Below, in pieces: positions 25,024-25,547 of a stretch of 64,000 nt of DNA. The stretch lies in assembly GCA_951406725.2 (NCBI GenBank), contig OX597825.1, positions 1 to 64,000 of the forward strand, written 5' to 3'. A program made the translations under genes and the position numbers. The notes below the pieces were generated by a model. That model ran no database searches and was not told the DNA's origin. It worked only from the letters and a program-made list of their open reading frames with translations. The stretch's first letter is position 1; each line of letters opens with the position of its first letter. The DNA comes from Octopus vulgaris (Eukaryota).

Positions 25024-25544
25024 CAGTGTGAAGCGGCTGACCTCCCTTGTTCGAAGGTTATAATGGATACAGATCGTGTATCAATAGCTATCTTGATGCC
25101 GGTGGCCTCATAGAGCTGACTAGCGGCAGCGATTATTCTTATATCTATAAGAATGCTATATTAATATGGCGATAACAATTAATTTCCAGTAAACGCTGCC
25201 GTAATCTCTTTTATAGAGACTTAGTAATTTTAATATTTCTATTATTGAAAACAAGTGGATGTATTCCACTGAAACTAGGTAAATAGAACCTTCGAACAGA
25301 GACGTCAGTGGCGACACCTGCGGGTCTGACTGCGCTACATTGACAAGGGGCAATACCCCGAAACGCGTCTGTAGCTGTCGGACTGGCAGTGCGAAGCGGC
25401 TGACCTCCCTTGTTCGAAGGTTATAATGGATACAGATCGTGTATCAATAGCTATCTTGATGGCGGTGGCCTCATGGAGCTGACCAGCGGCAGCTCTTATT
25501 CTTATATCTATAAGAATGCCATATTAATATGGCGATAACAATTA

Positions 25545-25547
<3 letters not shown>
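25024..25547 (+). mobile_element. Retrozyme-like non-coding element, 363-bp unit, ~1.45 tandem copies
   Basis: cagtgYgaagcggctgacctccc occurs at 25024 and 25387. Contains a variant HHR, is flanked by (TA)n, and is homologous to 40036-40689. Confidence 0.8.
25334..25375 (+). ncRNA. Minimal type I hammerhead, variant core UUGACAA
   Basis: GCUACA UUGACAA GGGG caaua CCCC GAAAC gc GUC UGUAGC; palindromic stem III ACGCGU. Confidence 0.78.

Follow-up and report, generated by a model that had tools for sequence, protein, structure and literature searches.

The insertion at 25024..25548 (+), called A below, raises the question of what kind of element has settled between two (TA)n tracts of the window (the whole stretch of 64,000 nucleotides analysed here), and from which template it was copied. 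In a preliminary description it was a diverged second subfamily of a 363-bp retrozyme, with selection on RNA structure and with permuted ends as expected from a circular or multimeric template. Our analyses make it rather likely that with A a non-autonomous non-LTR retrozyme has left a dispersed, truncated insertion, moved by a Penelope-type reverse transcriptase (RT) from cut multimers. A comprises 1.44 units of the 363-bp repeat and runs from +18 to +179 as counted from the predicted hammerhead cleavage site, spanning this site once. A target-site duplication, which in non-LTR retrozymes exceeds 4 bp where there is one, is unreadable here because (TA)n lies on either side. The parts of A are as follows.

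24910..25023, strand not applicable: left (TA)n flank, no readable target-site duplication
25024..25185, + strand: duplicated segment, first copy, differing from the second at 7 of 162 nt
25387..25548, + strand: duplicated segment, second copy, with its 3′ end in an unpaired AU-rich loop
25549..25709, strand not applicable: right (TA)n/(CA)n flank
25025..25319, + strand: predicted long rod, formed by pairing of about 25025-25059 with 25287-25319, which closes a domain of several hairpins
25318..25389, + strand: helix I with a 3-nt/1-nt internal loop and distal extension
25334-25339/25370-25375, + strand: helix I (descriptor scan)
25340-25346, + strand: core UUGACAA, U3-A8 (descriptor scan)
25347-25359, + strand: helix II, 4-bp
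25360-25363, + strand: GAAA (descriptor scan)
25363-25368, + strand: palindrome ACGCGU, helix III (descriptor scan)
After 25369, + strand: predicted cleavage site

The unit has a GC content of 0.42 and contains no internal ATG open reading frame of at least 30 codons; the 7 frames listed all cross the flanking TA tracts. SINEs derived from tRNA carry a head with ordered A and B boxes. A search found 0 tRNA genes, and although B-box-like words occur on the sense strand, an A box is absent from this strand in both B and C, the two relatives described below; the element hence does not qualify as a tRNA-derived SINE.

A descriptor scan of both window strands placed a type I hammerhead at 25334..25375 (+), with a 6-bp helix I, a 4-bp helix II and a palindromic helix III. 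It is one of four in the window, the others being two in B and one at 13655-13700 (−). Rfam gave 0 matches on A at the gathering score and no hammerhead among 10 weak matches, and hence the assignment is based on the descriptor scan and on folding; a metagenome scan for the ribozyme gave 0 matches. The core common to A and B is non-canonical, with U3-A8 replacing C3-G8, and the canonical pattern misses both while matching at 15 places elsewhere. U3-A8 hammerheads are natural and active in vitro (PMC3088659), and Schistosoma Penelope-like element (PLE) hammerheads include a U3-A8 variant (PMC4209133). In A, helix III is a single pair closed by a palindromic tetraloop, the dimer-dependent form of axolotl HHR_Amex1 (PMC7229834). 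Given this palindrome, the A-type hammerhead probably cleaves as a dimer; elsewhere, only 1 of 9 predicted dimers cleaved (10.64898/2026.07.22.740005). In the same source, Li et al. 2026 call a retrozyme locus 'active' when two consecutive units carry complete hammerheads. B carries two, but A has one and falls outside this definition. With one hammerhead, unit-length RNA release from A is impossible, which makes this locus a dead-end copy.

The closest relative in the window, subfamily B, has the same unit length, 363 bp, as had been stated.

40036..40689, + strand: subfamily B insertion, 1.8 units, in (TA)n, with two hammerheads at 40052-40093 and 40415-40456

The overlapping copies within B differ at 2 of 291 nt, and the A and B units are 85% identical (53 differences in 367 aligned columns). 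Stems II and III are identical in the two, and stem I changes keep pairing, as the preliminary description held; helix I differs by a single A-U/G-U change (25337). N7 (25344) is indeed the sole A/B difference in the core, although that account left unmentioned that the shared core is U3-A8. The reported distal exchange of A-U for G-C exists at 25329/25378 (A-U in A, G-C in B), and a second swap, G-C to A-U, lies at 25320/25387, but the extension of B also contains broken pairs (U-A to U.C at 25325/25382, and G-U to G.A). The helix I bulge differs as well (UAC/UGC at 25332). In contigs from sequencing runs, G at 25329 has a share of 1-3% versus 44-67% for C at 25378, with uneven coverage there, and the contigs thus do not confirm covariation of these two positions. 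At the 5′ junction of B, twelve extra bases (40024-40035) resemble nearby parts of the unit, perhaps owing to a template jump.

Is the ribozyme more conserved than the rest of the unit? This holds for the hammerhead proper, in which 2 of 42 columns differ between A and B (P 0.038), but not once the extension is included (12 of 69, P 0.83). The longest A/B identity lies outside the ribozyme (permutation P 0.005), and the best match to the more distant relative C falls in the same block.

25215..25269, + strand: 55-nt A/B-identical block, two to three hairpins, with a 3′-end hot spot at 25245

Of 29 variant places with a share of 5% or more in the contigs, among the 40 of 54 rows listed, the hammerhead holds 2 (Fisher P 0.32), whereas the 55-nt block holds none (P 0.007). 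By this count the hammerhead is not significantly more conserved. Variants of U3 or A8 do not appear among the same 40 of 54 rows.

Relative C is arranged in two parts of opposite orientation.

13605..14219, − strand: direct part of C, 363-bp unit, canonical C3-G8 hammerhead at 13655-13700 and a damaged one 363 bp upstream
14221..14399, + strand: inverted 5′ piece of C, unit positions +1 to +179, starting at the predicted cleavage site

The units of C and A are 59% identical (226 of 383 columns), and their alignment score, 70.5, exceeds the highest value from 300 shuffles, −52.5. The 3-8 pair covaries, being C-G in C and U-A in A and B, and five helix I/II pairs are changed on both sides.

Beyond the window, 24 runs from four organisms were listed, none with the unit on record as RNA, and four of them were analysed. 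Here 2595, 1806 and 585 contigs in three runs of three organisms aligned on one unit, figures that do not give a copy number, and end-to-start joints of the unit were seen in contigs of runs X1 and X2. A run only guessed to be RNA, X15, gave 43 contigs of A-like and B-like types and was left out of the evidence. At several diagnostic places both the A-type and the B-type letter are frequent in the contigs, and A hence represents a real subfamily instead of one decayed copy. Among the 24 of 326 loose-end rows listed, contigs of X1, X2 and X10 with loose ends at 25393 and 25435 reveal a further subfamily with helix III ACUAGU, palindromic in X2 and X10, whereas its consensus in X1 is not; in these rows the next hairpin carries the compensatory pair of C. 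Together with A, B and C this amounts to at least four lineages: A is separate from B, as first described, but there are more than two subfamilies.

Selection on RNA structure is supported, although it covers the whole unit and not the ribozyme in particular. Folded as circles, the units reach z-scores of −10.1 (A), −6.7 (B) and −9.1 (C) against 100 shuffles each, and the predicted minimum-energy circle of A includes helices I and II. From the 116 predicted pairs of A, 6 are broken in B, against 16.6 expected when the same 45 A/B substitutions are placed at random on the predicted structures with indels ignored; 0 of 3000 simulations were as low. In agreement, paired positions take 18 of the 45 substitutions instead of 28.6 expected (P 0.0007), and of 150 randomly mutated A units only one folded as well as B, while 0 of 150 mutated B units folded as well as A. 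Double changes between A and B, taken alone, are a weak signal (3 versus 1.0 expected, P 0.07; 0.037 reversed). A MAFFT and RNAalifold treatment of the three units put several helices out of register, with two-sided changes in 23 of 106 pairs and many pairs broken; it was discarded, and A and C were folded independently. They have 53 of 116 pairs in common, 13 of them changed on both sides, whereas 200 drift controls averaged 5.1 common pairs (maximum 23) and 1.2 double-changed ones (maximum 10). This modelling supports an overall fold common to C and A across the C3-G8/U3-A8 core difference. Structure selection would have acted on the source lineage and not on locus A, whose one hammerhead allows no unit-length RNA release.

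The ends of the insertions bear on the template. Phases run from +18 to +179 in A, from −51 to about +239 in B, and in C from +170 to +56 in the direct and from +1 to +179 in the inverted part. Start phases thus differ between insertions (+18 in A, −51 in B), as had been noted. The ends are permuted, but they are not random, as 3′ ends cluster in A/T-rich patches; likewise, the ends at the three loci are not all shared, but two 3′ ends have the same phase, +179. All-A/T stretches make up 4-8% of hexamer positions and yet hold 4 of 4 3′ ends, which run into TA, versus 0 of 2 5′ ends facing (TA)n; this mapping covers three loci, and alignment into (TA)n somewhat favours A/T ends. A and the inverted piece of C end in the same unpaired loop. 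The 3′ end of B corresponds to 25245, where 31 X1 contigs exit the unit into ATAT (among the 24 of 326 loose-end rows listed). Clustering of 3′ ends in A/T is expected from internal RT priming and requires no circle, and judged from the sequences, the polarity agrees with target-primed reverse transcription that starts at internal sites of the ribozyme strand. In L1 retrotransposition, twin priming yields inverted 5′ pieces. The layout of C matches twin priming in which the second copy extended to the 5′ end of the RNA, located at the cleavage site. The chance of the break lying within 3 nt either way of +1 is about 2%. This inversion, one event, is the best hint of in vivo cleavage and of a linear template, and it speaks for a linear cleaved multimer rather than for a circle.

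We therefore propose the following course for the retrozyme. Source arrays would give multimeric RNA, in which the rod of the 363-nt unit would bring successive hammerheads together and let the palindromic helix III strands pair; an unconstrained fold of B (40036-40470) is predicted as just such a double hammerhead, with the rod juxtaposing two ribozymes and the palindromes paired. The double hammerhead would cut the RNA, leaving monomers along with multimers that are cut only in part. A Penelope-type reverse transcriptase/endonuclease might then nick (TA)n DNA, prime at an internal AU-rich RNA patch, copy through an uncut ribozyme and stop at a variable 5′ point. Internal priming and a variable 5′ stop would together lead to inserts of more than one unit and of different phase. 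Since the RNA must fold for cutting and copying, master lineages would keep the whole fold while their sequence drifts. The PAc RT is known to cut AT-rich DNA and to start inside its own RNA, at a prime site not homologous to the cut DNA (PMC11167929). More speculatively, and with clearly less confidence than in the course itself, the Penelope-type enzyme could prime by A/T matching at a few loops of the linear self-cleaved multimer, sometimes twice and then with an inversion ending at the cleavage site, and 25215-25269 could be its recognition site, within a fold kept across 59%-identical families and a core switch.

According to the published model, a monomeric RNA circle serves as template for rolling reverse transcription, which yields the inserts. 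We regard this as possible, although it has well below even odds. Retrozymes of mollusc, coral and axolotl do accumulate as circles (PMC7229834), all three units fold well as circles, and the 7 copy differences of A could postdate its insertion. The near-identity of the copies in B would be expected from a circle, although 2 differences in 291 nt fit a circular or linear template alike. However, the start of the inverted piece of C coincides with +1 of the cleavage product, which is what a linear 5′ end would produce, and the copies of A carry unlike letters at 25131-2/25494-5, where the family is polymorphic. Between circle and multimer the evidence thus leans to the linear multimer; both templates may be in use. 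It is improbable that the phases arose at the DNA level, where slippage or recombination between A/T patches and (TA)n would have relocated or shortened pieces of a tandem array, or from mis-assembly at microsatellites, with the fold inherited from an RNA-active past. Every insert does sit in a long (TA)n tract, target-site duplications are unreadable, and a satellite-like route has been discussed (10.64898/2026.07.22.740005). Yet A/T matching is confined to 3′ ends in the polarity of the ribozyme strand, the C inversion breaks at the cleavage site, and an independent run shows the end at 25245 again (among the 24 of 326 loose-end rows listed).

The unit might also be the pseudo-LTR (pLTR) of an autonomous Penelope-like element, and the inserts its solo or truncated termini. 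PLE hammerheads have U3-A8 cores and a palindromic helix III (PMC4209133), traits of PLEs include inverted 5′ pieces and insertion into microsatellites (10.1101/2021.04.23.441226), and Xenopus retrozymes are related to pLTRs (10.64898/2026.07.22.740005). We nevertheless hold this to be unlikely, as the ribozymes lie 363 bp apart with no reading frame between them, the helices are canonical in size and not minimal, and only 0-1% of aligned contigs from DNA runs, short as these contigs are, continue into unlike sequence. About equally doubtful is a catalytically dead or dispensable hammerhead, the selected feature being an RT-binding or promoter block. This would agree with the variant core, the better conserved 55-nt block, hammerhead mutants without effect on PAc insertion in vitro (PMC11167929) and inserts that read through uncut ribozymes. 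It accounts poorly for the covarying 3-8 pair, C-G in C versus U-A in A and B, for the two-sided changes in helices I and II, and for the in vitro activity of U3-A8 ribozymes (PMC3088659).

A Penelope-like element lies in the same (TA)n tract as A.

22882..24910, − strand: Penelope-like element, 114 bp left of A
23067-24746, − strand: its RT reading frame, 559 codons, no GIY-YIG domain evident
22882-23029 / 24683-24830: its inverted terminal repeats
24710-24787: its hammerhead-like motif, read by eye, with an imperfect helix II base and missed by the descriptor scan

One of its ends carries an 80-nt tail. The RT frame has no Pfam and no PDB match; its Atlas look-alikes include RVT_1 at 12% and, in one cluster, HTH_animal at 93%. 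We take the element to be Penelope-like on the basis of these look-alikes, the inverted repeats and sequence motifs. It has no significant sequence in common with the retrozyme unit (best E 0.16) and is hence not established as its partner. A 16-of-17-nt AC-rich match between its tail (24831-24846) and C (13827-13843), with E 0.16, was not counted. The segment 11811-11843 also matches the tail (E 0.012). Elsewhere in the window, a 391-bp tandem array of about 27 copies (1-10608) has a weak circular fold (−59.9 kcal/mol) and no hammerhead by descriptor scan. Several LINE-type reverse transcriptase/endonuclease frames lie between long (TA)n tracts at 14600-21094 and 40840-46286, with an RVT_1 match in Pfam for 14600-16441. 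A short frame at 56069-56365 presumably resembles the start of another Penelope-type RT, with no Pfam match and no tblastn link to the neighbouring element, and 32806-33093 (−), with no Pfam match above cut-off, is presumably a host exon resembling CCDC124.

By its sequence-level features A is a member of the animal non-LTR retrozymes, and its identification as a retrozyme is borne out by the hammerhead, the 363-bp head-to-tail unit, the contig copies and the fold. The type I hammerhead lies within a non-coding unit with GC under 50%, whose length falls in the range of 150-450 bp and which occurs in many copies; its strongly self-paired monomer is predicted to leave the hammerhead free. As to a PLE pseudo-LTR, there is no RT/GIY-YIG frame between the units, and the neighbouring element has other repeats. 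The retrozyme kind, the U3-A8 core and the PLE link are already in print; a link between animal retrozymes and PLEs was proposed in PMC7229834 and argued in 10.64898/2026.07.22.740005. The literature searched yielded no report of a cephalopod retrozyme or of the present family, nor of any retrozyme with a U3-A8 core or with mapped insertion ends, and the supplements of these two papers may list the family. The value lies in the set of inserts over copy A, with a conserved whole-unit fold, a non-ribozyme domain, recurrent end phases, several subfamilies and a high copy number. End tabulation in one genome and one in vitro priming assay would make testable which enzyme mobilises animal retrozymes, and whether from a circular or another template.

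Among known systems, the animal non-LTR retrozymes such as the 350-390 bp repeats of mussel (PMC7229834) resemble A in the type I hammerhead, the short non-coding tandem unit, GC under 50%, the self-paired monomer, many copies and PLEs in the same genome. Compared by description, A differs from them in its U3-A8 core, its single ribozyme and its (TA)n site without readable target duplication. The axolotl/newt HHR_Amex1 repeats (PMC7229834) feature the same one-pair helix III with palindromic tetraloop, and dimer cleavage is expected; unit and host are different, and activity and circles were demonstrated there, whereas A is known from sequence. With PLE pLTR hammerheads (PMC4209133) A has in common the U3-A8 covariation, the palindromic helix III, inverted 5′ pieces and microsatellite or AT-rich targets. 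Unlike these, its helices are canonical (6-bp/4-bp) with a looped extension and not minimal, and no RT/GIY-YIG frame separates the repeats. Poseidon PAc (PMC11167929), finally, is similar in its AT-rich targets, an internal RT start at preferred sites and the use of uncut RNA as template. PAc starts in an AC-rich stem-loop non-homologous to the target, in contrast to the 3′ ends of the A family, which lie in AU-rich patches matching (TA)n.
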